Of a stretch of DNA of 64,000 nt, positions 1 to 60,422 are shown in pieces; position 1 is the stretch's first letter; each line of letters starts with the position of its first letter. Made by a program: the position numbers and the translations under genes. Under the pieces are notes generated by a model. It saw only the letters and a program-made list of their open reading frames with translations, was not told the DNA's origin and made no database searches. The DNA comes from Eledone cirrhosa (taxonomy: Eukaryota): NCBI GenBank assembly GCA_964016885.1, contig OZ024754.1:24304001-24368000 (forward strand). Reading direction: 5' to 3'.

Positions 1-3000
1 ACACCACCATTAACAACACCAACAACACACCACAATTAACAACACCACCAACAACACACCACCATTAACAACACCAACAACAACACACCACCATTAACAA
101 CACCAACAACAACACACCACCATTAATAACACCAACAACAACACACCACCATTAACAACAACAACAACAACAACACACCACTATTAACAACAACAACAAC
201 AATACACCACCATTAACAACAACACCAACAACAACACACCACCATTCATAACACCAACAACATACACCACCATTAACAACAACAACAACAACACACCACC
301 ATTAACAACACCAACAACAACACACCACCATTAACAACACTAACAACAACACTCGACTATTAACAACACCAATAACAACACACCGCCATTAACAACACCA
401 ACAACAACACACCACCATTAACAACACCAACAACAACACACCAACAACAACACCACCAACAACAACACACCACCATTAACAATAACAACACACCACCATT
501 AACACCACCAACAACACACCACCATTAACAATAACACCACCAATAACAACACACCACCATTAACAACACCAACAACAACACACCACCATTAACATCACCA
601 ACAACACACCACCATTAACAATAACACCACCAATAACAACACACCACCATTAACAACACCAACAACAAGACTCCACCATTAACAACACCCACAACAACAC
701 ACCACCATTAACAACACCAACAACAACAGACCACCATTAACAACACCAACAACACACACCACCATTAACAACACCAACAACAACAAACCACCAGTAACAA
801 GACCAATAACAACACACCACCATTAACAAGACCAACAACAACACACCACCATTAACAACAACACAACCAACAACAACAACACACCACCATTAACAACAAC
901 ACCACCAACAACAACACACCACCATTAACAACACCAACAACACACCACTAACAACAACACACCAACAACAACACCACCAACAACAACACACAACCATTAA
1001 CAACACCAACAACAACACACCACCATTAACAACACCAACAACAACACACCAACAACACACCACCAATAAAAACACACCACCATTAACAACACCAACAACA
1101 ACACACCACCATTAACAACACAAACAACACACCACCATTAACACCACTAACAACAACACACCAACAACAACACCACCAACAACAACACACCACCATTAAC
1201 AACACCAACAACAACACACCACCATTAATAACACCAACAACAACACACCACCATTAACAACACCAACAACACACACCACCATTAACAACACCAACAACAA
1301 CACACCACCATTAACAACACCAACAACAACACACCAACAACACACCACCAATAACAACACACCACCATTAACAACACCAACAAGAACACACCACCATTAA
1401 CAACACCAACAACAACAAATCACTATTAACAAGACCAACAATACACACCAACATTAACAACACCAACAACAAGACACCACCATTAACAACACCAACAACA
1501 ACACACTGCCATTAACAACACCAACAACAACAAACCACCAGTAACAACACCAACAACAACACACCACCATTAACAAGACCAACAACACACACCACCATTA
1601 ACAACACCCATAACAACACACCACCATTAACAACACCAACAACAACACACCACCATTAACAACACCAACAACACACCACCATTAACACCACTAACAACAA
1701 CACACCAACAACAACACCACCAACAACAACACACCACCATTAACAACACCAACAACACACACCACCATTAATAACACCAACAACAACACACCACCATTAA
1801 CAACACCAACAACACACACCACCATTAACAACACCAACAACAACACACCACCATTAACAACACCAACAACAACACACCAACAACACACCACCAATAACAA
1901 CACACCACCATTAACAACAACACAACGAACAACAACACACCACCATTAACAACACCAACAACACACCACCATTAACACCACTAACAACAACACACCAACA
2001 ACAACACCACCAACAACAACACACCACCATTAACAACACCAACAACAACACACCACCATTAACAACACCAACAATAACACACCACCATTAACAACACCAA
2101 CAACAACACACCACCATTAACAACACCAACAACAACACACCACCATTAACAACACCAACAACACACACCACCATTAACAACACCAACAACAACACACCAC
2201 CATTAACAACACCAACAACAACACACCACCATTAACAACACCAACAACAACACACCACCATTAACAACACCAACAACAACACACCACCATTAACAACACC
2301 AACAACAACACACCACCATTATCAACACCAACAACAACACACCACCATTAACAACACCAACAACACACACCACCATTAACAACACCAACAACAACACACC
2401 AACAACAACACCACCAACAACAACACACCACCATTAACAACACCAACAACACACTACCATTAACAACACCAACAACAACACACCACCATTAACAACACCA
2501 ACAATAACCCACCACCATTAACACCACCAACAACAACACACCACCATTAACAACACAAACAACACACCACCATTAACAACACCAACAACAACACACCACC
2601 ATTAACAACACCAACAACACACACCACCATTAACAACACCAACAACAACACACCAACAACAACACCACCAACAACAACACCCCACCATTAACAACACCAA
2701 CAACACACCACTATTAACAACACCAACAACAACACACCACCATTAACAACAACACAACCAATAACAACACACCACCATTAACAACACCAACAACACACCA
2801 CCATTAACACCACTAACAACAACACACCAACAACAACAACACCAACCACAACACAGCACCATTAACAACACCAACAACACACACACCACCATTAACACCA
2901 CTAACAACAACACACGAACAACACCACCACCAACAACAAAACACCACCAACAACAACACCCCACCATAAACAACAACAACAACAACACACCACCATTAAC

Positions 3001-6000
3001 CACAACAACAACAACACACCACCATTAACAACACCAATAATACACCACCATTAACAACACCAACAACAACACACCACCATTAACAACAACAACAACAACA
3101 CCACACCACCATTAACAACAACAACACACCACCATTAACACCACCAACAACACACCACCAATAACAACACACCACCATTAACAACACCAACAACAAGACA
3201 CCACCATTAACAACACCAACAACAACACACCACCATTAACAACACCAACAAAAAGACACCACCATTAACAACACCCACAACAACACACCACCATTAACAA
3301 CACCAATAACAACATACCACCATTAACAACACCAACAACAACACACCACCATTAACAACACCAATAACAACACGCCACCATTAACAACACCAATAACAAC
3401 ACACCACCATTAACAACACCCACAACAACACACCTCCATTAACAACACCAATAACAACACACCACCATTAACAACACCAACAACAACACACCACCATTAA
3501 CAACACCAATAACAACACACCACCATTAACAACACCAACAACAACACACCACCATTAACAACAGCAACAACAACACACCACCATTAACAACACCAACAAC
3601 AACACACCACCATTAACAACACCGACACCAACACACCAACAACAACACCACCAACAACAACACACCACCATTAATAACACCAACACACCAACAACAACAC
3701 CACCAATAACAACACACCACCATTAATAACACCAACAACAACACACCAACAACAACACCACCAACAACAACACACCACCATTAACACCACCAACAACAAC
3801 ACACCAACAACAACACCAGCAACAACAACACACCACCATTAACAACACCAACAACAACACACCGCCATTAACAACACCAACAACAACACACCACCATTAA
3901 CACCACCAACAACAACACACCAACAACAACACAACCAACAACAACACACCACCATTAACACCACCAACAACACCACACCACCATTAGCAACACCAAACCA
4001 ACACACCACCATTAACAACACCAACATCAACACACCACCATTAACAACACCAACAACAACACACCAACAACAACACACCACCATTAACAACACCAACAAC
4101 AACACACCACCATTAACAACACCAACAACACACCACCATTAACAACACCAACAACAACACACCACCATTAATAACACCAACAACAACACACCACCATTAA
4201 CAACAACAACAACAACAACACACCACCATTAACAACAACAACAACAATACACCATCATTAACAACAACACCAACAACAGCACACCACCATTCATAACACC
4301 AACAACATACACCACCATTAACAACAACAGTAACAACACACCACCATTAACAACACCAACAACAACACACCACCATTAACAACACTAACAACAAGACTCG
4401 ACTATTAACAACACCAATAACAACACACCGCCATTAACAACACCAACAACAACACACCACCATTAACAACACCAACAACAACACACCAACAACAACACCA
4501 CCAACAACAACACACCACCATTAACAATAACAACACACCACCATTAACACCACCAACAACACACCACCATTAACAATAACACCACCAATAACAACACACC
4601 ACCATTAACAACACCAACAACAAGACTCCACCATTAACAACACCCACAACAACACACCACCATTAACAACACCAATAACAACAGACCACCATTAACAACA
4701 CCAACAACAACACACCACCATTAACAACACCAACAATAAGACACCACCATTAACAGCACCAACAACAACACACCACCATTAACAACACCAAGAACAAGAC
4801 ACCACCATTAACAACACCAACAACAACACACCACCATTAACAACACCAACAACACACCACCATTAACAACACCACCAACAACACACCACCATTAACAACA
4901 CCAACAACAACACACCACCATTAACAACACCAACAACAACACACCACCATTAATAACACCAACAACAACACACCACCATTAACAACAACAACAACAACAA
5001 CACACCACCATTAACAACAACAACAACAATACACCACCATTAACAACAACACCAACAACAACACACCACCATTCATAACACCAACAACATACACCACCAT
5101 TAACAACAACAACAACAACACACCACCATTAACAACACCAACAACAACACACCACCATTAACAACACTAACAACAAGACTCGACTATTAACAACACCAAT
5201 AACAACACACCGCCATTAACAACACCAACAACAACACACCACCATTAACAACACCAACAACAACACACCAACAACAACACCACCAACAACAACACACCAC
5301 CATTAACAATAACAACACACCACCATTAACACCACCAACAACACACCACCATTAACAATAACACCACCAATAACAACACACCACCATTAACAACACCAAC
5401 AACAACACACCACCATTAACATCACCAACAACACACCACCATTAACAATAACACCACCAATAACAACACACCACCATTAACAACACCAACAACAAGACTC
5501 CACCATTAACAACACCCACAACAACACACCACCATTAACAACACCAACAACAACAGACCACCATTAACAACACCAACAACAACACACCACCATTAACAAC
5601 ACCAACAACAAGACACCACCATTAACAGCACCAACAACAACACACCACCATTAACAACACCAAGAACAAGACACCACCATTAACAACACCAACAACAACA
5701 CACCACCATTAACAACACCAACAACACACCACCATTAACAACACCACCAACAACACACCACCATTAACAACACCAACAACAACACACCACCATTAACAAT
5801 ACCAACAACAACACACCACCATCAACAACACCAACAACAACACACCACCATTATCAACACCAACAACAACACACCACCATTAACAAGATACCACCATTAA
5901 CAACACCAACAACGAGACACCACCATTAACAACACACCACCATTAACAAGAGACCACCATTAACAACACCAACAACGAGACACCACCATTAACAACACCA

Positions 6001-6335
6001 ACAAAAACACACCACCATTAACAACACCAACAACAACACACCACCATTAACAACAACACCACCAATAACAACACACCACCATTAACAACACCAATAACAA
6101 CAAACCACCATTAACAACAACAATAACAACACCAGTAACATCAGACCACCAATAACAACACCAATAACAACACCAATAACAACACACCACCAATAACAAC
6201 ACCAATAACAGCACCAATAACAACGCACCACCAATAACAACACCAATAACAACACCAATAACAACACACCACCAATAACAACACCAATAACAACAAACCA
6301 CCATTAACAACAACAACAACACCAATAACCACACT
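1..6335. repeat. Complex G-poor satellite, unit ~24-27 bp (caacaacacaccaccattaacaacac), with higher-order duplicated blocks
   Basis: Continuous tandem array. Rare variants recur in the same order: attcataac at ~245/4290/5071, ctcgactat at ~352/4397/5179, aagactcc at ~667/4622/5494. Confidence 0.95.
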
Positions 6336-16479: not shown

Positions 16480-17112
16480 CTATGAAAGCCCATCAACTTT
16501 CTGTGCCATACATTTGCATTGTTTTATTCTTTGTACTTTCCTGCGCTTGAACCGCATGTGTTTAGCTCCTTGGCATCTCAGAGTCACTCTTATCCAAGTG
16601 TAGCGTCTTGGCTTGCAGTAACCGCAAGCCATGAACGCAGCTCCCCCTCCGTCATGTTTACCACTGCGTGGTATAAAGAAAGAGTTACATTGGCCGTAAC
16701 AAAAGCGATTCAAAACAGTTTGTCGCAGGCAGCCTTCTTCTCGAATAACTTGTTTCAGTAGTTCAGTCTTGCACCATTCTTTTCTCAGATAACTCTTTCT
16801 TGTTACAGTGAAGGCAGTTTTACTTCCTTTGATTGGCAATTTGTCTTGTCGCGAACTCGAAGAATCCTGTCGACGATGATGGGGTAAGCCGATATTAAAG
16901 CTGTCGTCGACTTTCTTCTTTTTCGGTATGAGGCTCATACTTGAGTCCTCTCGCAGTGGTAGTTTGCCTCTTTTGTAAAGTGCTGAAGTACGGTTTGAAA
17001 CACGGAGAGGAATTCGTATTTTCCTTCCAGGTGGTGGGAAGTTCCATCCATCAGAAGGTAGGCTTACATAGAGCAGCAGAACGATGCTCACTGACAGATC
17101 ACAAGAATTCAT
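16480..17112 (-). CDS. grem: Gremlin-like DAN-family cystine-knot BMP antagonist, 210 aa, secreted
   Basis: Hydrophobic N-terminus ([11 protein letters not shown]). C-terminal DAN domain [21 protein letters not shown]...[14 protein letters not shown]...ACGYCKP...VTLRC...KQCKC has the nine-cysteine spacing of gremlin. Basic heparin-binding-like C-terminus, NRT sequon. Confidence 0.96.
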
Positions 17113-17113
17113 C

Positions 17114-17136
17114 CTGCAAAAGGAAAAAAAAAAGCG
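17114..17136 (-). promoter_or_regulatory. 3' splice acceptor directly upstream of the gremlin ATG
   Basis: Minus strand reads cgcttttttttttccttttgcag|gATG, a polypyrimidine tract plus CAG, leaving 1 nt of 5'UTR in the coding exon. Confidence 0.85.
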
Positions 17137-35109: not shown

Positions 35110-35800
35110 AAAATTGAGAGGGCGCTTGCCCTGCTGGTCAGGGTGGCCGTGGTCTTTTGTGTGGTTTTCGCCACGAGTAACCCTCGGAGGTTTCCCCCCT
35201 ATTGGGGAATTTTTCATTGTTTAAATTTTCATTTTTATTGTTTATATATATATATATATATATGCTTCTATGTCTTTTTTTCTTTTTCGTTACATATATA
35301 AATAATAAAAATCTTTACACGCACAAAACCCACATCGTACCGTCCTGTCCCGTCATGTGCAGTCTGTAATGTTTTCTTGGTGTCAGCCCTTGTGGCCAAT
35401 AAAGAAATTAGAGAGGCAAGAATGGCCCGAGTGAATGGGCCTACTCTGAGTATGTGTCTGTAAATTAAAGGTGGAAAACTGGGAGAGGGCACTTGCCCTG
35501 GTGGTCAGGGTCACTGTGGCTTTTTAATGGGCTTTCTCCACGAATGTCCTTCGGAAGTCTCCCCCGTATTGGGGAATTTTTCATTGTTATTATTTTGTTA
35601 CATCCTCTGGTTTTGTTTTTTACACGCAGAAATGCCCATTTGTACCGTCCTGTAATAATAATAATAATAATAATAATACTTTCTTTATTAACCACAAGGG
35701 TTTACATAAAGTAGACATTAAGGACAGTACAGGACAATAGTCATATACTGTCCTTAATGTCTACTTTATGTAAACCCTTGTGGTTAATAAAGAAAGTATT

Positions 35801-35896: not shown

Positions 35897-35934
<38 letters not shown>

Positions 35935-35980
35935 AGATCAAAAGATGGTTAAAAAAACTCACCTCCTACATATATATATA

Positions 35981-38900
35981 TATATATGTGAATATAGACA
36001 TAGAATATTCGAAAATATTCTGTATGTTTATAATAAACATTTTGAAGACCTAATCGCTATAGAATAGAATACGTCACGTATTACAATTAGATTCTCGATA
36101 AAAGCAAGGGAAGTAATCTACGCGTTTCATTCTTGTTAGAAATCATCAGGACTACATATCCAGTGCTTTTATCGAGAATGACACAGCTAGAGACTTATAG
36201 AATACTTAGCTGTGTACAGGAACTGGTTTGAAAGAGCGGTTGCCGGTCCGGCAGAAATTAGAAATTGGAATAAATGCTCTGAAATAGCGATATATATGTG
36301 AATATAGACATAGAATATTCGAAAATATTCTGTATGTTTATAATAAACATTTTGAAGACCTAATCGCTATAGAATAGAATACGTCACGTATTACAATTAG
36401 ATTCTCGATAAAAGCAAGGGAAGTAATCTACGCGTTTCATTCTTGTTAGAAATCATCAGGACTACATATCCAGTGCTTTTATCGAGAATGACACAGCTAG
36501 AGACTTATAGAATACTTAGCTGTGTACAGGAACTGGTTTGAAAGAGCGGTTGCCGGTCCGGCAGAAATTAGAAATTGGAATAAATGCTCTGAAATAGCGA
36601 TATATATGTGAATATAGACATAGAATATTCGAAAATATTCTGTATGTTTATAATAAACATTTTGAAGACCTAATCGCTATAGAATAGAATACGTCACGTA
36701 TTACAATTAGATTCTCGATAAAAGCAAGGGAAGTAATCTACGCGTTTCATTCTTGTTAGAAATCATCAGGACTACATATCCAGTGCTTTTATCGAGAATG
36801 ACACAGCTAGAGACTTATAGAATACTTAGCTGTGTACAGCAACTGGTTTGAAAGAGCGGTTGCCGGTCCGGCAGAAATTAGAAATTGGAATAAATGCTCT
36901 GAAATAGCGATATATATGTGAATATAGACATAGAATATTCGAAAATATTCTGTATGTTTATAATAAACATTTTGAAGACCTAATCGCTATAGAATAGAAT
37001 ACGTCACGTATTACAATTAGATTCTCGATAAAAGCAAGGGAAGTAATCTACGCGTTTCATTCTTGTTAGAAATCATCAGGACTACATATCCAGTGCTTTT
37101 ATCGAGAATGACACAGCTAGAGACTTATAGAATACTTAGCTGTGTACAGGAACTGGTTTGAAAGAGCGGTTGCCGGTCCGGCAGAAATTAGAAATTGGAA
37201 TAAATGCTCTGAAATAGCGATATATATGTGAATATAGACATAGAATATTCGAAAATATTCTGTATGTTTATAATAAACATTTTGAAGACCTAATCGCTAT
37301 AGAATAGAATACGTCACGTATTACAATTAGATTCTCGATAAAAGCAAGGGAAGTAATCTACGCGTTTCATTCTTGTTAGAAATCATCAGGACTACATATC
37401 CAGTGCTTTTATCGAGAATGACACAGCTAGAGACTTATAGAATACTTAGCTGTGTACAGGAACTGGTTTGAAAGAGCGGTTGCCGGTCCGGCAGAAATTA
37501 GAAATTGGAATAAATGCTCTGAAATAGCGATATATATGTGAATATAGACATAGAATATTCGAAAATATTCTGTATGTTTATAATAAACATTTTGAAGACC
37601 TAATCGCTATAGAATAGAATACGTCACGTATTACAATTAGATTCTCGATAAAAGCAAGGGAAGTAATCTACGCGTTTCATTCTTGTTAGAAATCATCAGG
37701 ACTACATATCCAGTGCTTTTATCGAGAATGACACAGCTAGAGACTTATAGAATACTTAGCTGTGTACAGGAACTGGTTTGAAAGAGCGGTTGCCGGTCCG
37801 GCAGAAATTAGAAATTGGAATAAATGCTCTGAAATAGCGATATATATGTGAATATAGACATAGAATATTCGAAAATATTCTGTATGTTTATAATAAACAT
37901 TTTGAAGACCTAATCGCTATAGAATAGAATACGTCACGTATTACAATTAGATTCTCGATAAAAGCAAGGGAAGTAATCTACGCGTTTCATTCTTGTTAGA
38001 AATCATCAGGACTACATATCCAGTGCTTTTATCGAGAATGACACAGCTAGAGACTTATAGAATACTTAGCTGTGTACAGGAACTGGTTTGAAAGAGCGGT
38101 TGCCGGTCCGGCAGAAATTAGAAATTGGAATAAATGCTCTGAAATAGCGATATATATGTGAATATAGACATAGAATATTCGAAAATATTCTGTATGTTTA
38201 TAATAAACATTTTGAAGACCTAATCGCTATAGAATAGAATACGTCACGTATTACAATTAGATTCTCGATAAAAGCAAGGGAAGTAATCTACGCGTTTCAT
38301 TCTTGTTAGAAATCATCAGGACTACATATCCAGTGCTTTTATCGAGAATGACACAGCTAGAGACTTATAGAATACTTAGCTGTGTACAGGAACTGGTTTG
38401 AAAGAGCGGTTGCCGGTCCGGCAGAAATTAGAAATTGGAATAAATGCTCTGAAATAGCGATATATATGTGAATATAGACATAGAATATTCGAAAATATTC
38501 TGTATGTTTATAATAAACATTTTGAAGACCTAATCGCTATAGAATAGAATACGTCACGTATTACAATTAGATTCTCGATAAAAGCAAGGGAAGTAATCTA
38601 CGCGTTTCATTCTTGTTAGAAATCATCAGGACTACATATCCAGTGCTTTTATCGAGAATGACACAGCTAGAGACTTATAGAATACTTAGCTGTGTACAGG
38701 AACTGGTTTGAAAGAGCGGTTGCCGGTCCGGCAGAAATTAGAAATTGGAATAAATGCTCTGAAATAGCGATATATATGTGAATATAGACATAGAATATTC
38801 GAAAATATTCTGTATGTTTATAATAAACATTTTGAAGACCTAATCGCTATAGAATAGAATACGTCACGTATTACAATTAGATTCTCGATAAAAGCAAGGG

Positions 38901-39184
38901 AAGTAATCTACGCGTTTCATTCTTGTTAGAAATCATCAGGACTACATATCCAGTGCTTTTATCGAGAATGACACAGCTAGAGACTTATAGAATACTTAGC
39001 TGTGTACAGGAACTGGTTTGAAAGAGCGGTTGCCGGTCCGGCAGAAATTAGAAATTGGAATAAATGCTCTGAAATAGCGATATATATGTGAATATAGACA
39101 TAGAATATTCGAAAATATTCTGTATGTTTATAATAAACATTTTGAAGACCTAATCGCTATAGAATAGAATACGTCACGTATTAC
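35981..39184 (-). repeat. Left arm of 310-bp hammerhead satellite (retrozyme-like): 10 full units plus a partial unit, ribozyme on minus strand
   Basis: Unit start tatatatgtgaatatagaca at 35981, 36291, 36601 ... 39081. First minus-strand HHR at 36113-36155. Confidence 0.97.
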
Positions 39185-42100
39185 CAGTTCCTGTACACAG
39201 CTAAGTATTCTATAAGTCTCTAGCTGTGTCATTCTCGATAAAAGCACTGGATATGTAGTCCTGATGATTTCTAACAAGAATGAAACGCGTAGATTACTTC
39301 CCTTGCTTTTATCGAGAATCTAATTGTAATACGTGACGTATTCTATTCTATAGCGATTAGGTCTTCAAAATGTTTATTATAAACATACAGAATATTTTCG
39401 AATATTCTATGTCTATATTCACATATATATCGCTATTTCAGAGCATTTATTCCAATTTCTAATTTCTGCCGGACCGGCAACCGCTCTTTCAAACCAGTTC
39501 CTGTACACAGCTAAGTATTCTATAAGTCTCTAGCTGTGTCATTCTCGATAAAAGCACTGGATATGTAGTCCTGATGATTTCTAACAAGAATGAAACGCGT
39601 AGATTACTTCCCTTGCTTTTATCGAGAATCTAATTGTAATACGTGACGTATTCTATTCTATAGCGATTAGGTCTTCTAAATGTTTATTATAAACATACAG
39701 AATATTTTCGAATATTCTATGTCTATATTCACATATATATCGCTATTTCAGAGCATTTATTCCAATTTCTAATTTCTGCCGGACCGGCAACCGCTCTTTC
39801 AAACCAGTTCCTGTACACAGCTAAGTATTCTATAAGTCTCTAGCTGTGTCATTCTCGATAAAAGCACTGGATATGTAGTCCTGATGATTTCTAACAAGAA
39901 TGAAACGCGTAGATTACTTCCCTTGCTTTTATCGAGAATCTAATTGTAATACGTGACGTATTCTATTCTATAGCGATTAGGTCTTCAAAATGTTTATTAT
40001 AAACATACAGAATATTTTCGAATATTCTATGTCTATATTCACATATATATCGCTATTTCAGAGCATTTATTCCAATTTCTAATTTCTGCCGGACCGGCAA
40101 CCGCTCTTTCAAACCAGTTCCTGTGCACAGCTAAGTATTCTATAAGTCTCTAGCTGTGTCATTCTCGATAAAAGCACTGGATATGTAGTCCTGATGATTT
40201 CTAACAAGAATGAAACGCGTAGATTACTTCCCTTGCTTTTATCGAGAATCTAATTGTAATACGTGACGTATTCTATTCTATAGCGATTAGGTCTTCAAAA
40301 TGTTTATTATAAACATACAGAATATTTTCGAATATTCTATGTCTATATTCACATATATATCGCTATTTCAGAGCATTTATTCCAATTTCTAATTTCTGCC
40401 GGACCGGCAACCGCTCTTTCAAACCAGTTCCTGTACACAGCTAAGTATTCTATAAGTCTCTAGCTGTGTCATTCTCGATAAAAGCACTGGATATGTAGTC
40501 CTGATGATTTCTAACAAGAATGAAACGCGTAGATTACTTCCCTTGCTTTTATCGAGAATCTAATTGTAATACGTGACGTATTCTATTCTATAGCGATTAG
40601 GTCTTCAAAATGTTTATTATAAACATACAGAATATTTTCGAATATTCTATGTCTATATTCACATATATATCGCTATTTCAGAGCATTTATTCCAATTTCT
40701 AATTTCTGCCGGACCGGCAACCGCTCTTTCAAACCAGTTCCTGTACACAGCTAAGTATTCTATAAGTCTCTAGCTGTGTCATTCTCGATAAAAGCACTGG
40801 ATATGTAGTCCTGATGATTTTTAACAAGAATGAAACGCGTAGATTACTTCCCTTGCTTTTATCGAGAATCTAATTGTAATACGTGACGTATTCTATTCTA
40901 TAGCGATTAGGTCTTCAAAATGTTTATTATAAACATACAGAATATTTTCGAATATTCTATGTCTATATTCACATATATATCGCTATTTCAGAGCATTTAT
41001 TCCAATTTCTAATTTCTGCCGGACCGGCAACCGCTCTTTCAAACCAGTTCCTGTACACAGCTAAGTATTCTATAAGTCTCTAGCTGTGTCATTCTCGATA
41101 AAAGCACTGGATATGTAGTCCTGATGATTTCTAACAAGAATGAAACGCGTAGATTACTTCCCTTGCTTTTATCGAGAATCTAATTGTAATACGTGACGTA
41201 TTCTATTCTATAGCGATTAGGTCTTCAAAATGTTTATTATAAACATACAGAATATTTTCGAATATTCTATGTCTATATTCACATATATATCGCTATTTCA
41301 GAGCATTTATTCCAATTTCTAATTTCTGCCGGACCGGCAACCGCTCTTTCAAACCAGTTCCTGTACACAGCTAAGTATTCTATAAGTCTCTAGCTGTGTC
41401 ATTCTCGATAAAAGCACTGGATATGTAGTCCTGATGATTTCTAACAAGAATGAAACGCGTAGATTACTTCCCTTGCTTTTATCGAGAATCTAATTGTAAT
41501 ACGTGACGTATTCTATTCTGTAGCGATTAGGTCTTCAAAATGTTTATTATAAACATACAGAATATTTTCGAATATTCTATGTCTATATTCACATATATAT
41601 CGCTATTTCAGAGCATTTATTCCAATTTCTAATTTCTGCCGGACCGGCAACCGCTCTTTCAAACCAGTTCCTGTACACAGCTAAGTATTCTATAAGTCTC
41701 TAGCTGTGTCATTCTCGATAAAAGCACTGGATATGTAGTCCTGATGATTTCTAACAAGAATGAAACGCGTAGATTACTTCCCTTGCTTTTATCGAGAATC
41801 TAATTGTAATACGTGACGTATTCTATTCTATAGCGATTAGGTCTTCAAAATGTTTATTATAAACATACAGAATATTTTCGAATATTCTATGTCTATATTC
41901 ACATATATATCGCTATTTCAGAGCATTTATTCCAATTTCTAATTTCTGCCGGACCGGCAACCGCTCTTTCAAACCAGTTCCTGTACACAGCTAAGTATTC
42001 TATAAGTCTCTAGCTGTGTCATTCTCGATAAAAGCACTGGATATGTAGTCCTGATGATTTCTAACAAGAATGAAACGCGTAGATTACTTCCCTTGCTTTT

Positions 42101-43174
42101 ATCGAGAATCTAATTGTAATACGTGACGTATTCTATTCTATAGCGATTAGGTCTTCAAAATGTTTATTATAAACATACAGAATATTTTCGAATATTCTAT
42201 GTCTATATTCACATATATATCGCTATTTCAGAGCATTTATTCCAATTTCTAATTTCTGCCGGACCGGCAACCGCTCTTTCAAACCAGTTCCTGTACACAG
42301 CTAAGTATTCTATAAGTCTCTAGCTGTGTCATTCTCGATAAAAGCACTGGATATGTAGTCCTGATGATTTCTAACAAGAATGAAACGCGTAGATTACTTC
42401 CCTTGCTTTTATCGAGAATCTAATTGTAATACGTGACGTATTCTATTCTATAGCGATTAGGTCTTCAAAATGTTTATTATAAACATACAGAATATTTTCG
42501 AATATTCTATGTCTATATTCACATATATATCGCTATTTCAGAGCATTTATTCCAATTTCTAATTTCTGCCGGACCGGCAACCGCTCTTTCAAACCAGTTC
42601 CTGTACACAGCTAAGTATTCTATAAGTCTCTAGCTGTGTCATTCTCGATAAAAGCACTGGATATGTAGTCCTGATGATTTCTAACAAGAATGAAACGCGT
42701 AGATTACTTCCCTTGCTTTTATCGAGAATCTAATTGTAATACGTGACGTATTCTATTCTATAGCGATTAGGTCTTCAAAATGTTTATTATAAACATACAG
42801 AATATTTTCGAATATTCTATGTCTATATTCACATATATATCGCTATTTCAGAGCATTTATTCCAATTTCTAATTTCTGCCGGACCGGCAACCGCTCTTTC
42901 AAACCAGTTCCTGTACACAGCTAAGTATTCTATAAGTCTCTAGCTGTGTCATTCTCGATAAAAGCACTGGATATGTAGTCCTGATGATTTCTAACAAGAA
43001 TGAAACGCGTAGATTACTTCCCTTGCTTTTATCGAGAATCTAATTGTAATACGTGACGTATTCTATTCTATAGCGATTAGGTCTTCAAAATGTTTATTAT
43101 AAACATACAGAATATTTTCGAATATTCTATGTCTATATTCACATATATATCGCTATTTCAGAGCATTTATTCCA

Positions 43175-43176
<2 letters not shown>
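39183..43176 (+). repeat. Right arm of 310-bp hammerhead satellite: ~12.9 units, ribozyme on plus strand
   Basis: aaaccagttcctgtacacag at 39491, 39801 ... 42901 is the reverse complement of the left-arm unit. The arm ends at ...ttattccaat and runs into (AT)n. Confidence 0.97.
39255..39297 (+). ncRNA. Minimal type I hammerhead ribozyme (one of 23 copies, repeated every 310 bp)
   Basis: Helix I gtagtc/gattac, CTGATGA 39261-67, helix II ttct-aaca-agaa with U.U at its base, GAAAC 39282-86, palindromic helix III ACGCGT, cleavage after GTA 39289-91. Helix I is extended by a perfect 16-bp pair, 39231-39246/39304-39319. Confidence 0.93.
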
Positions 43177-43222
<46 letters not shown>

Positions 43223-53834: not shown

Positions 53835-55189
53835 TGGTTGTGAGAGTAGATTGAAAGAGAGACATAGAGAGAGGGAAAGGAGAATGGAAGAGAGAGAGAG
53901 AGAGAGCTTGTGGTGATCACAGACACCCACATACACACACAGACCCCCCCCCCCCACACACATATATATATATATGTATACAAACACACACATTTATATA
54001 TATACATATTTATATACATTGGCCTTCCAGTTTCATTTCACATTATATACTTGTCTGTTTAATTATTTAAAAATTATCATATAAGTGAATATGATTTTAA
54101 AAAAATATTTTGAAGGGAACGTGACCCAACGGGTGGTCAAGTAAAATATAAAAATAACACCTCAACCTATAATAACAAAGTACAACGATATGATTGGTGT
54201 AATGCAAGCCAACTACAGAAGAAACGACCGAACGAGCAATATTTCATTAGTTGATACGTACTGCTACTTTAGACCATGACTTTCTGAATGGCACGCCTAA
54301 TTACAAAATTGCCTTGAATCTTTTAGTAATGTGGCCCACCGTATGAACCACATCCTATATTGCCTAATGCTCGAAAAAAAGGTTGCCAATGCTTGCTTGA
54401 GACACTACCCGTGGGAAGCCAACTCAGTGCTGATGGTGGTGAGTAGGGAGGTGGCAAATAAATAAACACTTCTAGCGACACAGATTAGCAAAAAGAGCAT
54501 AGCCATTTTCAGAGAGAGAGAGAGAAAATCCTTCACTCCAGTACTGGATTGGATGAAATTCAAAGTTGATCTTGGTGGGATTTGAACTGAAAGTGCAGAG
54601 ATTGAAGGAATAACGTAAAGCATTCTGTCGACGTCCTAATGACTCAGCCAAATCACTGCCTCTACGGATTATAGGATATGAAAATTTAAAAAATGATATA
54701 CAGGTAAACAACAGCGAAGTTAATCAGTGGAAAACAGCAGAACGAACGAATCAGCATATGAAACGACGTTCACCATAGACAACTACTTCATTATAAACCA
54801 GCCAATGGAGACAATAGCCTTAGGCAATACAATGAACCCACTCTGTTGAATATAAAACTAACCTGAAGCTCGTCAGATAACACTCCTGTCTGAGGTGGTA
54901 GTGGTAGTAAAGGCCATTGTAATAGTAGTATTAGTGGTGATTAGTGGCAACGATGGAATAGGGGGTTGCGGTGTAGTAGTGGTATAAGTGATTATGGTAT
55001 TAGTGGTGGTGTGTGTAGAAGTGGTAGTAGGGGATGGTGGGTGTGTTATAGGTGATGGTGGTAATAAAGGTGATTATAGAAGTAGTAATGGTGGTGATAG
55101 TGGTAGTATAGGTCATTGTTATAGTAGTGGTGGGGTGTATGTAGAAATGTTGATAATGTTTGGGGGTGGATGTATAGATGGTGGTTGTG

Positions 55190-56150
55190 GTAGTGGTATG
55201 ACGGGGGTGAAGGTGATGGTAGTAGTGGTATGACGGGGGTGAAAGTGGTGGTAGTAGTGGTATGACGGGGGTGAAGGTTGTGGTGGTAGTAGTGGTATGA
55301 CGGGGGTGAAGGTGGTGGTAGTAGTGGTATGGCGGGGGTGTAGGTAGTGGTAGTAGTGGTATGACGGGGGTGTAGGTGGTGGTAGTAGTGGTATGACGGG
55401 GGTGAAGGTGGTGGTAGTAGTGGTATGGCGGGGGTGTAGGTAGTGGTAGTAGTGGTATGACGGGGGTGTAGGTGGTGGTAGTAGTGGTATGGCGGGGGTG
55501 TAGGTAGTGGTAGTAGTGGTATGGCGGGGGTGTAGGTAGTGGTAGTAGTGGTATGACGGGGGTGTAGGTGGTGGTAGTAGTGGTATGACAGGCGTGAAGG
55601 TGGTGGTAGTAGTGGTATGACGGGGGTGTAGGTGGTGGTAGTAGTGGTATGACGGGGGTGAAGGTGGTGGTAGTAGTGGTATGACGGGGGTGAAGGTGGT
55701 GGTAGTAGTGGTATGACGGGGTGTAGGTGGTGGTAGTAGTGGTATGGCGGGGGTGTAGGTAGTGGTAGTAGTGGTATGACGGGGGTGTAGGTGGTGGTAG
55801 TAGTGGTATGACGGGGTGTAGGTGGTGGTAGTAGTGGTATGGCGGGGGTGTAGGTGGTGGTAGTAGTGGTATGACGGGGTGTAGGTAGTGGTAGTAGTGG
55901 CATGACGGGGGTGAAGGTGGTGGTAGTAGTGGTATGACGGGGGTGTAGGTGGTGGTAGTAGTGGTATGACGGGGGTGTAGGTGGTGGTAGTAGTGGTATG
56001 ACGGGGGTGTAGGTGGTGGTAGTAGTGGTATGACGGGGGTGAAGGTGGTGGTAGTAGTGGCATGACGGGGGTGAAGGTGGTGGTAGTAGTGGCATGACGG
56101 GGGTGAAGGTGGTGGTAGTAGTGGTATGACGGAGGTGAAGGTAGTGGTAG
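55190..56150. repeat. G-rich ~32-bp minisatellite (ggtatgacgggggtgtaggtggtggtagtagt)
   Basis: Tandem units; these generate the spurious Pro/His/Thr-rich ORFs on the minus strand. Confidence 0.95.
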
Positions 56151-56319
56151 TAGTGATAGTGGATGTGGAAATGGTGGTAGTGGTGGTGGGGATGGTGTGG
56201 TATTGGTGGAAGGTGATATGTAGATGATGGTTGCGGAGATATGACAGTGGAGGTGGTTGTAGTAGTGAGAGTGGTGAGGGGTGTTGGTAGGGGATTTGGA
56301 AGTAATGGTGATGATAGGT

Positions 56320-57949
56320 GTAGAGTGGTGGTAGTGGTGGTAGTTGTAGTAGTGGTGGTAGTTGTGGTAGTGGTGGTAGTGGTGGCAGTTGTCTTAGTTG
56401 TAGTAGTGGTGGTAGTTGTGATAGTGGTGGTAAGGGTGGCAGTTATCGTAGTTGTAGTAGTGGTGGTAGTTGTGATAGTGGTGGTAGTGGTGGCAGTTGT
56501 AGTAGTTGTAGTAGTGGTGGTAGCTGTGATAGTGGTGGTAGTGGTGGCAGTTGTAGTAGTTGTAGTAGTGGTGGTAGGTGTGATAGTGGTGGTAGTGGTG
56601 GCAGTTGTAGTAGTTGTAGTAGTGGTGGTAGCTGTGATAGTGGTGGTAGTGGTGGCAGTTGTAGTAGTTGTAGTAGTGGTGGTAGGTGTGATAGTGGTGG
56701 TAGTGGTGGCAGTTGTAGTAGTTGTGATTGTGATAGTGATGGTAGTTGTGGTAGCGGCGGTAGTGGTGGCAGTTGTAGTAGTTGTAGTAGTGGTGGTAGT
56801 TGTGATAGTGGTGGTAGTGGTGGCAGTTGTCGTAGTTGTAGTAGTGGTGGTAGTTGTGATAGTGGTGGTAGTGGTGGCAGTTGTCGTAGTTGTAGTAGTG
56901 GTGGTAGTTGTGGTAGTGGTGGTAGTGGTGGCAGTTGTCGTACTTGTAGTAGTGGTGGTAGTTGTGGTAGTGGTGGTAGTTGTGATAGTGGTGGTAGTTG
57001 TGGTAGTGGTGGTAGTGGTGGCAGTTGTCGTAGTTGTAGTAGTGGTGGTAGTTGTGGTAGTGGTGGTAGTGGTGGCAGTTGTCGTAGTTGTAGTAGTGGT
57101 GGTAGTTGTGGTAGTGGTGGTAGTGGTGGCAGTTGTCGTAGTTGTAGTAGTGGTGGTAGTTGTGGTAGTGGTGGTAGTGGTGGCAGTTGTCGTAGTTGTA
57201 GTAGTGGTGGTAGTTGTGGTAGTGGTGGTAGTTGTGATAGTGGTGGTAGTGGTGGCAGTTGTCGTAGTTGTAGTAGTGGTGGTAGTTGTGGTAGTGGTGG
57301 TAGTGGTGGCAGTTGTCGTAGTTGTAGTAGTGGTGGTAGTTGTGATAGTGGTGGTAGTTGTGATAGTGGTGGTAGTTGTGGTAGTGGTGGTAGTGGTGGT
57401 AGTGGTGGCAGTTGTCGTAGTTGTAGTAGTGGTGGTAGTTGTGGTAGTGGTGGTAGGTATAGAAGTGACAGTAGTGGTGGTAGTTGTGGTAGTGATGGTA
57501 GGTATAGAAGTGACAGTAGTGGTGGTAGTTGTGGTAGTGGTGGTAGGTATAGAAGTGACAGTAGTGGTGGTAGTGGTGGTAGGTATAGAAGTGACGGTAG
57601 TGGTGGTAGTTGTGGTAGTTGTGGTAGTGGTGGTAGTGGTGGTAGTGGTGGTAGTGGTGGTAGTGGAGGTAGTGGTGGTAGTTGTGGCAGTGGTGGTAGT
57701 GGTAGCAGTTGTCGTAGTTGTAGTAGTGGTGGTAGTTGTGATAGTGGTGGTAGTTGTGGTAGTGGTGGTAGTTGTGATAGTGGTGGCAGTTGTCGTAGTT
57801 GTAGTAGTGGTGGTAGTTGTGGTAGTGGTGGTAGTGGTGGTAGTGGTGGCAGTTGTCGTAGTTGTAGTAGTGGTAGTGGTGGATGAAAGGTGAAAAAATA
57901 TTGCTAGTAGGGGAAACAGCTGAATAAACAGAAAAATACAGTAATTTTG

Positions 57950-58008
<59 letters not shown>

Positions 58009-58024
58009 GGTGGTGGTGGTGGTG

Positions 58025-58086
<62 letters not shown>

Positions 58087-58123
58087 AGTAGTAGTAGTAG
58101 TAGTGGTAGTAGTAGTAGTAGTA

Positions 58124-58191
<68 letters not shown>

Positions 58192-58198
58192 GGTGGTG

Positions 58199-58260
<62 letters not shown>

Positions 58261-58297
58261 AGTAGTAGTAGTAGTAGTGGTAGTAGTAGTAGTAGTA

Positions 58298-58349
<52 letters not shown>

Positions 58350-58471
58350 GAGTAGTAGTAGTGGTAGTGGTAGTAGTAGTAGTAGTGGTGGTGGTGGTGG
58401 TGGTGGTGGTGGTGGTGGTGGTGGTAGTGGTAGTAGTAGTAGTAGTAGTAGTAGTGGGAGTAGTAGTAGTG

Positions 58472-58503
<32 letters not shown>

Positions 58504-58540
58504 AGTAGTAGTAGTAGTAGTGGTAGTAGTAGTAGTAGTA

Positions 58541-58590
<50 letters not shown>
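56320..58590. repeat. GTN-triplet satellites ((gta)n/(gtg)n/(gtt)n with longer-period units)
   Basis: Source of the poly-Val ORFs. Confidence 0.95.
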
Positions 58591-58594
<4 letters not shown>

Positions 58595-58857
58595 ATGGTG
58601 GTGGTGGTGTTTGTTGTTGTCGGAGGTGGTGGGAATGGTGGCGATAGTAGTAGTGTAGTGGTTTTTGTCGTAGTTGGTGGTGTTGGTGGTGGTAGTGGTG
58701 GTAGTGGTGATAGTTATGGTGTTGGTGGTGTTGGTGGTGGTAGTGGTGGTAGTGGTGATAGTTATGGTGTTGGTGGTGTTGGTGGTGGTAGTGGTGGTAG
58801 TGGTGGTAGTGGTGATAGTTATGGTGTTGGTGGTGTTGGTTGTAATATGACGGTTAG

Positions 58858-59402
58858 GATGGGTGTAGGGTGGGGTTAGGTTGCGACGATGGGTGTAGGG
58901 TGGGGTTAGGTTGCGACGATGGGTGTAGGGTGGGGTTAGGTTGGGTGTAGGGTGGGGCTAGGTGGGTGTAGGGTGGGGTTAGGTTGCGACGATGGGTGTA
59001 GGGTGGGGTTAGGTTGGGTGTAGGGTGGGGCTAGGTGGGTGTAGGGTGGGGTTAGGTTGGGTGTAGGGTGGGGCTAGGTGGGTGTAGGGTGGGGTTAGGT
59101 TGCGACGATGGGTGTAGGGTGGGGTTAGGTTGCGACGATGGGTGTAGGGTGGGGTTAGGTTGCGACGACGGGTGTAGGGTGGGGCTAGGTTGCGACGACG
59201 GGTGTAGGGTGGGGTTAGGTTGGGTGTAGGGTGGGGCTAGGTGGGTGTAGGGTGGGGTTAGGTTGCAACGATGGGTTTAGGGTGGGGCTAGGTTGGGTGT
59301 AGGGTGGGGCTAGGTGGGTGTAGGGTGGGGCTAGGTTGGGTGTAGGGTGGGGCTAGGTGGGTGTAGGGTGGGGCTAGGTTGCAACGATGGGTGTAGGGTG
59401 GG
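58858..59402. repeat. G-rich minisatellite gggtgtagggtgggg(t/c)taggtt(gcgacgat)
   Basis: Tandem 21-30 bp units with closely spaced GGG/GGGG runs. Confidence 0.93.
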
Positions 59403-59453
59403 ATTAGTTATGACAGTAGTGATGGAATGATGATGAGGATGATGATAGTAATG

Positions 59454-59611
59454 ATAATTGTTTCTACTTTAGGCACAAGGCCAGCAATTAACCAGTACAT
59501 TACTGGTACTTTATTTTATCGACCCCGTAAGGATGAAAGGCAAAGTTAACCTCGGTGGGATTTGAACTCAGACCGCAAAGGGACGTAACTATGCTGGAAA
59601 GCATGGCATCC
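59454..59611 (-). mobile_element. SINE family A, 5'-truncated
   Basis: Matches 12029-12187 and ends at gcatggcatcc. Confidence 0.9.
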
Positions 59612-60422
59612 TGATGATAATGCCAAGGTATTGGTGATGGTGTTAGTAGAAGTGGTGATGGTAGTGATGATGATAATGCCAAGGTATTGGTGATGGTGTT
59701 AGTAGAAGTGGTGATGGTAGTGATGATGATAATGCCAAGGTATTGGTGATGGTGTTAGTAGAAGTGGTGATGGTAGTGATGATGATAATGGCGAGGTATT
59801 GGTGATGGTGTTAGTAGAAGTGGTGATGGTAGTGATGATGATAATGCCAAGGTATTGGTGATGGTGTTAGTAGAAGTGGTGATGGTAGTGATGATGATAA
59901 TGCCAAGGTATTGGTGATGGTGTTAGTAGAAGTGGTGATGGTAGTGATGATGATAATGCCAAGGTATTGGTGATGGTGTTAGTAGAAGTGGTGATGGTAG
60001 TGATGATGATAATGCCAAGGTATTGGTGATGGTGTTAGTAGAAGTGGTGATGGTAGTGATGATGATAATGCCAAGGTATTGGTGATGGTGTTAGTAGAAG
60101 TGGTGATGGTAGTGATGATGATAATGCCAAGGTATTGGTGATGGTGTTAGTAGAAGTGGTGATGGTAGTGATGATGATAATGGCGAGGTATTGGTGATGG
60201 TGTTAGTAGAAGTGGTGATGGTAGTGATGATGATAATGGCGAGGTATTGGTGATGGTGTTAGTAGAAGTGGTGATGGTAGTGATGATGATAATGGCGAGG
60301 TATTGGTGATGGTGTTAGTAGAAGTGGTGATGGTAGTGATGATGATAATGGCGAGGTATTGGTGATGGTGTTAGTAGAACTGGTGATGGTAGTGATAGAA
60401 TGATGATGATAATGGCGAGGTA
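59612..60422. repeat. 56-bp minisatellite, ~14 copies, two variants (gccaagg / ggcgagg)
   Basis: tgccaagg at 59621, 59677, 59733 and onward, period 56. Confidence 0.95.

Follow-up and report, generated by a model that had tools for sequence, protein, structure and literature searches.

A dispersed 310-bp hammerhead repeat of the octopod Eledone cirrhosa as a candidate non-LTR retrozyme with Penelope-like insertion footprints

Retrozymes without long terminal repeats (non-LTR retrozymes) are described as tandem non-coding units of 150–450 bp that carry a type I hammerhead ribozyme, have a GC content below 50% and show target duplications of more than 4 bp (PMC7229834). We analyzed a 310-bp tandem repeat in a 64,000-nt stretch of the Eledone cirrhosa genome (GenBank assembly GCA_964016885.1, contig OZ024754.1, positions 24,304,001 to 24,368,000; hereafter, the window, with coordinates counted from its first base). 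It resembles the coral, mussel and axolotl Rtz_331/Rtz_353 retrozymes of that study in its small tandem non-coding units, type I hammerhead and thousands of copies, and its ribozyme joins the weak palindromic helix III of the axolotl HHR_Amex1 with the helix II U.U mismatch of HHR_Amex2, axolotl hammerhead forms reported to cut well only as dimers (PMC7229834). Expression and RNA circles have been demonstrated for those retrozymes; for the 310-bp family they are predictions from genomic sequence. The main text of PMC7229834 describes neither inverted arms nor cephalopods, and its supplement may show other invertebrate retrozymes or inverted loci. Metazoan retrozymes have been said to have no conserved motif revealing their partner (PMC7761336); in contrast, the conserved tail and fixed ends of the 310-bp family do appear to point to a partner enzyme.

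The second group of relevance is that of the Penelope-like elements (PLEs). Their insertions carry an inverted, 5'-truncated partner copy and a 30–40 bp tail, often at one end only, with a bias towards microsatellites (PMC8557442). In vitro, AT-rich DNA is cut by a purified PLE protein, a predicted dimer, which also extends both strands, starting at two adjacent internal RNA sites that coincide with the genomic tail bounds (PMC11167929). With such endonuclease-bearing PLEs the 310-bp family shares (AT)n targets, the inverted 5'-truncated partner, a one-end extension of ~26–33 nt and a hammerhead placed upstream of two end sites (PMC8557442, PMC11167929), but it lacks any open reading frame (ORF), has up to 14 head-to-tail units per arm and shows no match to the pseudo-long terminal repeats (pLTRs) of the PLEs that we sampled. 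Chlamys MRC1, likewise a non-coding PLE dependant with multicopy head-to-tail insertions, is green-algal, belongs to a clade described without canonical hammerheads and has a 3' end resembling that of its autonomous partner (PMC8557442). Xenopus retrozymes are related to PLE pLTRs, and animal retrozymes have been proposed to be non-autonomous PLE derivatives (bioRxiv 10.64898/2026.07.22.740005); that study relies on co-occurrence and pLTR similarity, mainly in vertebrates, leans to local amplification, and its text mentions neither 'tail' nor 'initiation' nor molluscs.

The movement of retrozymes by PLEs via circles has already been published as a hypothesis (PMC4209133, PMC7229834, PMC7761336, bioRxiv 10.64898/2026.07.22.740005), and in the text examined these same sources report no tails, fixed starts or inverted arms in retrozymes and no cephalopod family. 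We found no description of a cephalopod retrozyme in the open-access literature searched, although supplements, Repbase or Dfam may contain this family; ribozymes go unmentioned in a 2026 repeat annotation of Octopus vulgaris, and the one supplement of PMC13282606 that was searched contains no hammerhead or retrozyme. Our verdict is that the 310-bp unit appears to represent a non-LTR retrozyme family that is new and bears footprints left directly by PLEs. As a reading of the whole array in the window, we consider it reasonably probable that it is one insertion of a non-coding, non-autonomous non-LTR retrozyme moved by a PLE protein, probably from an RNA circle.

A two-armed array and its recurrence across the genome

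Tandem Repeats Finder (TRF) resolved the repeat into two 310-bp arrays, at 35980–39184 (10.3 copies) and 39183–43176 (12.9 copies), with the following features (position 1 of the unit is the first base past the predicted cut, so that 39292 = 1):

35970..35979, no strand: left (AT)n target tract
35980..39184, minus strand: minus arm, 10.3 units with 10 hammerheads; its outer 3' end at unit position ~139 is the 'short' end, its edge blurred by the AT tract
39183..39184, no strand: head-to-head junction of the arms, where unit positions 35 and 202 meet with a 2-nt overlap
39183..43176, plus strand: plus arm, 12.9 units with 13 hammerheads; its outer 3' end at unit position 165 is the 'long' end
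39292..39601, plus strand: predicted monomer, the 310 nt (34% GC) between two successive cut sites
43140..43150, plus strand: AU-rich tract at unit positions 129–139, given for the last plus unit; short ends fall here, and it is the putative first start of reverse transcription
43151..43176, plus strand: 26-nt 'tail', unit positions 140–165, bounded by the two fixed ends; sister retrozyme families conserve its core
43177..43198, no strand: right (AT)n target tract; the target duplication is unreadable in pure (AT)n

The original prediction, made from the letters of the window alone, had described an array of ~23 units with an exact 310-bp period, 10 hammerheads on the minus and 13 on the plus strand and no ORF inside. 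TRF and a pattern search of the 64-kb window, which found the hammerhead nowhere else, agreed with it, and the array contains no stop-to-stop frame of at least 120 aa (one begins at 43103 and leaves the array). The further claim of one motif in every full unit held exactly for 22 of the 23 hammerheads; in the one at 40811–40841 a C>T change leaves a U.G pair in helix II. Over both arms only five bases depart from the common unit (36840, 39677, 40125, 40821, 41520). A search for tRNA genes in the array found none. With units of 310 bp, 23 hammerheads, no long frame and 34% GC, the array has the size, ribozyme and non-coding, non-LTR, GC-poor character of non-LTR retrozymes, primer-binding sites and polypurine tracts not having been searched separately. 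It carries no ORF for the reverse transcriptase (RT) and GIY-YIG endonuclease of an autonomous PLE, and it does have what is expected of a non-autonomous PLE dependant, namely two alternative 3' ends, an inverted partner copy and a microsatellite target.

A search of sequencing runs listed the 310-bp unit in six runs from four studies, with no RNA run among those listed, which speaks neither for nor against expression. The unit was also seen as a closed 340-nt contig in three of the four runs assembled, which argues that it is not an assembly product. These closed contigs were not counted as RNA circles, since tandem DNA yields them equally. The unit had no match in metagenome and viral contigs, and a bacterial promoter scan, irrelevant to this host, gave chance-level results.

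The most informative feature was absent from the original prediction: the inversion and the two array ends, that is, a PLE-type tail and inverted arms, recur genome-wide. The core pattern CUGAUGA-N10-18-GAAACGCGUA had 14,242 matches (7,462 + 6,780) in the 3.0-Gb genome, the dispersed, high copy number of non-LTR retrozymes, against none for a reversed control; the tail pattern, common to the sister families, had 23,386. The counts of variants and junctions come from 20–31 loci; we took the first 15 on contig C1 and filled up the set with the best BLAST matches. Two divergent arms were present at 24 of the 31 loci examined and one arm at the other 7, so the inverted two-arm anatomy is the rule and not peculiar to the array in the window. 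Both ends could be read at 22 of the two-armed loci, and 21 of these paired a short with a long end, one arm ending at ~139 (129 in one case) and the other at 163–172; the two fixed outer ends are spaced by about 26–33 nt. Genome-wide, the short site had 1,121 exact ends into (AT)n and position 165 had 998, as opposed to none at the cut site and one at positions 86–89, despite more TA microhomology there than at 165. In the sister families, 1,364 long ends occurred at the equivalent site. On contig C1, taking the first 100 short ends and the first 86 long ends in the list, we counted 57 neighbours within 20 kb; 54 of these neighbours were divergent, and all 54 pairs combined one short and one long end. 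Insertion spans formed a smooth range with a median of 2,384 bp, the smallest being 221 and the largest 14,959 bp, with up to 14 exact head-to-tail units per arm.

Target duplications were readable at 3 of 28 loci, with 14 bp (L075), 12–15 bp (L077) and ~31 bp (L076), all above the 4 bp of non-LTR retrozymes; most others, including that of the window locus, are unreadable in (AT)n. A satellite would show few large loci and variants shared between neighbouring units. The more than 1,000 dispersed ends, and one variant shared by a subset of units against 31 private ones, depart from this, and the dispersed ends support the earlier claim of a mobile element rather than an inert satellite.

The Eledone genome holds 10,595 GIY-YIG candidates, and its PLE families combine an RT with a C-terminal GIY-YIG domain. 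One of them (family A) has a zinc-finger-like motif ahead of GIY-YIG, which suggests that it is of the Neptune type. In the five PLE families examined, a hammerhead-like motif precedes two alternative ends in (AT)n that lie about 27–65 nt from each other, and family E forms inverted pairs, each with one short and one long end. Because the fixed short and long ends, inverted arms and (AT)n targets of the 310-bp family match these local PLEs and PLE priming in vitro, its insertion by PLE machinery appears very probable. The array thus seems to work as a PLE dependant. The searches for its partner, by GIY-YIG domain, by loci with long ORFs and by profile, yielded PLE families that have tails, but none with the tail of the 310-bp unit. 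Family E, picked as partner for its similar short end, was rejected since its tail differs. A young PLE family (L161, L162, L166, L169, L170 and L172) has 96–97% protein identity and open frames of up to 938 aa; the hammerhead in its pLTR has a U3-A8 core variant and a palindromic helix III.

The hammerhead: structure, fold and covariation

The elements of the ribozyme are given here for one copy in the plus arm:

39231..39319, plus strand: 16-bp extension of helix I, 39231–39246 with 39304–39319, closing both monomer ends
39255..39297, plus strand: example type I hammerhead, with a 6-bp helix I (39255–39260 with 39292–39297) and a predicted cut after 39291
39261..39267, plus strand: hammerhead core CUGAUGA, followed by a U.U mismatch and a 4-bp helix II, GAAA and a palindromic 6-nt helix III

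The coordinates previously proposed for the cut after GUA at 39291 and for the monomer 39292–39601 were correct, and the type I assignment found support in the core and in the covariation described below. The same prediction had called the ribozyme minimal, a term that has to be abandoned. According to the definition in PMC4209133, minimal hammerheads have no helix III or loop 3 beyond the core bases, a helix II of 7–8 bp, a helix I of 4–5 bp and a poor loop 1, whereas helix II has 4 bp here and helix I consists of 6 bp, an internal loop and the 16-bp extension. This makes it a canonical metazoan type I hammerhead, defined in the same source by a conserved core, helices I, II and III of ~6, ~4 and 1–2 bp, respectively, and a palindromic loop. 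A search with Rfam Hammerhead_1, suggested as a check, proved unusable for this ribozyme: the Rfam hammerhead families (CL00010) gave no match at gathering score, the best being HH9 with 19.2 bits against a cut-off of 52. The internal loop between helix I and its extension carries the UA found in the HH9 model.

We compared 19 related, hand-chosen hammerhead regions, a set that can support selection without attaching a probability to it. The nucleotides U4, G5, A6, A9, A13, A14, A15.1, C15.2, G16.2 and U16.1 were invariant in all 19, position 17 was G in none, and the 3-8 pair was always kept, as C3-G8 in 12 regions and U3-A8 in 7. Pairing was found in 89.2% of the cells, compared with 76.1% in shuffled and 38–49% in slid alignments, and 22 of the 30 pairs showed two-sided, compensatory change, which supports that the hammerhead fold is under selection. 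The 16-bp extension, perfectly paired in the unit, covaries across sister families; its arms also form the joint of the two array arms at two loci (L065, L075). The predicted fold of the unit had z = −4.38, with none of 100 shuffles equally stable; together with the lack of matches to the reversed control pattern, this indicates that the unit pattern is not due to chance. In the best predicted fold of a lone unit copy (−31.3 kcal/mol) the hammerhead core is disrupted, whereas two copies are predicted to co-fold into a double hammerhead at −68.7 kcal/mol, below twice the energy of the monomer, in agreement with the pairing between neighbouring units suggested before.

Sister families in the same genome are 70–80% alike over unit positions 59–235, have periods of ~313–324 bp and carry hammerheads spelled differently from that of the 310-bp unit. 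We also observed a third hammerhead family with a near-identical helix II, a stable 4-bp helix III and short inverted arms in (AT)n, at the following sites:

L113:2311, L114:787, L120:4226–4242, L166:685, L170:7633–7645, L174:5266: third hammerhead family

Tandem or inverted hammerhead repeats unrelated in sequence occur at L102:441–1341, L113:2941–3841 (period 467), L162:6510–7419 (period 459) and L155:2600–3264. The genome has many hammerhead families.

A probable single template per locus and the competing explanations

The variants within loci provided information on the template. In 164 whole units from 20 loci (the set leaves out the 11 of the 31 loci with fewer than two whole units), 31 variants occurred in a single unit, one was common to two units and the rest were locus-wide, comprising 16 distinct substitutions and one insertion present in every covering unit of their loci. 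No non-fixed variant common to both arms of one locus was seen at these 20 loci. The majority haplotype was identical in the two arms at 11 of 12 loci, the exception having a single unit in each arm, compared with 24 of 264 arm pairs between loci (9%). Because a mutation arises in one unit, it would reach all units of both arms only where the entire array has one unit as its template, and one unit therefore appears to template each array. Copying of a monomer circle predicts array-wide variants as its direct product, and the one-haplotype loci match this rolling-circle prediction. The lengths of the two arms correlate (rho 0.51, p 0.02, n = 20, with mixed ascertainment), and the 164 crossings of the cut site contained no private indel within 5 nt of it.

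The inner ends of the arms are spread evenly over the unit (56 ends, Kolmogorov-Smirnov (KS) p = 0.24). With junction boundaries taken from BLAST and hence approximate, 13 of 24 inner junctions overlap by at least 2 nt, versus 18% for random fusion, and 6 of 24 have inserted bases. In the twin priming of L1 elements, cDNA is likewise primed from the two strands of the target, and microhomology links the cDNAs head to head; there, however, the site of the second primer is variable and lies close to the start of the part that is not inverted. The 310-bp family differs in having both starts fixed and both inner ends spread. Some inner junctions are complex, with short fold-backs or duplicated pieces (L062:3843–4020, L071:2456–2475, L077:3610–3624), suggesting repeated priming while the arms join. 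At L062 and L069 we found a 311-bp variant whose units, in both arms, all have an extra base immediately past the cut; this could record a change at the ligation junction.

Among the locus-wide substitutions, A>G in the RNA sense was the commonest (6 of 16, five of them in predicted stems), compared with 3 of 26 private variants, a difference that is not significant (p = 0.063; calculated without L009, without position 290 and without the final 15 bases of terminal copies):

Unit positions 20, 214, 216, 259, 276 and 295: locus-wide A>G sites, ancestry unpolarised

A-to-I editing of the template in this cephalopod is a possibility, and selection on structure explains the A>G changes equally well. 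An excess of C>T among private variants was set aside as an end effect at position 131, where the target reads TA in place of CA.

A mechanism can be proposed from these observations. The array would be transcribed, and neighbouring hammerheads would pair via their palindromic helix III and cut at GUA, yielding 310-nt monomers whose ends, held together by helix I and the 16-bp extension, would be ligated into circles. We propose that the poor folding of a lone hammerhead would make these circles stable. A PLE protein, probably dimeric, would nick both strands of an (AT)n tract, and reverse transcription would be primed from both nicks at two adjacent RNA sites; both enzymes would travel around the circle, how many times being random, and the two cDNA ends would be joined, often by microhomology, into a palindromic concatemer in a single event. 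The passage through a circular monomer seems likely to us. More tentatively, and with somewhat less than even confidence, we suggest that one 310-nt circle may be copied simultaneously by both RTs of a PLE dimer, each from its own nick and fixed start, because this would fit the short/long pairing in 54 of 54 cases, the arm haplotypes (11 of 12 against 9%) and the correlated arm lengths.

Several observations weigh against this retrozyme-circle interpretation. The sequences used for covariation are related, so the shuffle control overstates significance, and a helix II with a U.U mismatch at its base and a helix III of 1–2 bp predict a weak ribozyme. Seven of the 31 private variants are the one selected by the query used, C>T at position 290, over-represented because the BLAST query carried it; the loci are young, so few variants are informative. 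No inner end out of 56 lies within 4 nt of the cut, a weak point on its own given that ~1.6 are expected by chance. One divergent long-long pair was found among the 100 sister-family ends listed, the ends of one locus (L061) lie at 149 and 164, and one-armed loci make up 7 of the 31. A profile search of 90 PLE-bearing loci, a sample outside which most PLEs of the genome lie given the number of GIY-YIG candidates, found no PLE with the tail or pLTR sequence of the retrozyme; it recovered inserted retrozymes and one weak, oppositely oriented match outside a PLE end. Only one of nine Xenopus retrozyme dimers showed cleavage (bioRxiv 10.64898/2026.07.22.740005), and the anole PLE is reported not to require hammerhead cleavage to insert, unprocessed RNA being its main substrate (PMC11167929).

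The use of unprocessed RNA by the anole PLE in vitro (PMC11167929) also favours a template of another kind, an uncleaved linear multimeric transcript of the parent array inserted by the PLE, the hammerhead being slow or having some other role and no circle being formed. Such a multimer would explain the tail, the inverted arms and the exact crossings of the cut site equally well, and helices II and III are weak. It would nevertheless need a bottleneck of one unit to account for 16 substitutions and one insertion that are locus-wide against a single subset-shared variant; moreover, no non-fixed variant is common to both arms of a locus, and the hammerhead and the end-closing helix covary. We regard it as rather unlikely. 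Considerably less credible is the insertion of a short inverted PLE-type fragment followed by local growth through DNA slippage or unequal crossing-over, a model discussed in bioRxiv 10.64898/2026.07.22.740005. This would keep the PLE ends and one haplotype per locus, and older sister loci do tend to be short. However, local growth should produce variants shared by neighbours, of which one was seen against 31 private ones; the spans are smooth from 221 to 14,959 bp, even in arrays identical to the common unit, and both arms would have had to expand separately at most loci, yet their lengths correlate.

We give still less credit to a cleaved linear monomer on which the enzyme jumps from end to start, making concatemers without a covalent circle, which would provide the monomer bottleneck by cleavage but no ligase, with helix I holding the ends together. 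Template jumps, as known from work on R2, usually leave added or lost bases, and there was neither a private indel near the cut in the 164 crossings nor a pile-up of inner ends there. Finally, the inversion might be an artefact, with an ordinary satellite misassembled or its reads folded back, given that palindromes can arise in long reads and that no contig from the examined runs spans the window locus. The arm lengths and end positions differ and the junctions vary by locus, the short/long pairing holds in 54 of 54 cases and target duplications exist, so that we consider an artefact practically negligible.

The surroundings of the array and what the insertions may record

A coding frame supports the earlier assignment of the window to a cephalopod and indicates an octopod:

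16480..17136, minus strand: Gremlin/DAN-family coding frame (PF03045), sharing 90% identity with gremlin-2 of Octopus bimaculoides and lying ~19 kb from the array

The next-best match of this gremlin exon has 65% identity, and the other matches listed have at most 69%. Closer to the array, a near-perfect palindrome of ~120 bp (~35678–35798) lies between (TAA)n and (TTA)n, is highly repeated in sequencing run X2 and looks like another short inverted insertion. The left flank (~35928–35969) resembles a repeat that also lies beside an AT tract in L098, of which it would carry two short, oppositely directed pieces; the AT tract in which that element ends seems to have served as the landing site of the array. 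Towards the margins of the window, 1–6333 and 55180–60396 are long degenerate tandem arrays, AAC/ACC-rich (29-bp) and GGT-rich (9, 32 and 56-bp), with strong strand skew.

The enzyme that moves animal retrozymes and the rolling-circle origin of their arrays have been the subject of proposals since 2014–2020, argued from co-occurrence and sequence likeness. More than 1,000 young insertions with the two-start-site footprint of PLEs now supply the exact positions of the starts together with a target and a template for tests with purified PLE protein. The data also bear on the inverted and tailed ends of PLEs, listed as unexplained in PMC8557442. If the simultaneous copying of one circle by two RTs is true, every insertion would be a fossil of double rolling-circle reverse transcription, the tail and the inverted or tandem pLTRs of PLEs in general would be explained likewise, and a ribozyme-plus-tail module of ~170 nt would suffice for a PLE enzyme to write multi-kilobase concatemers from a small circle.

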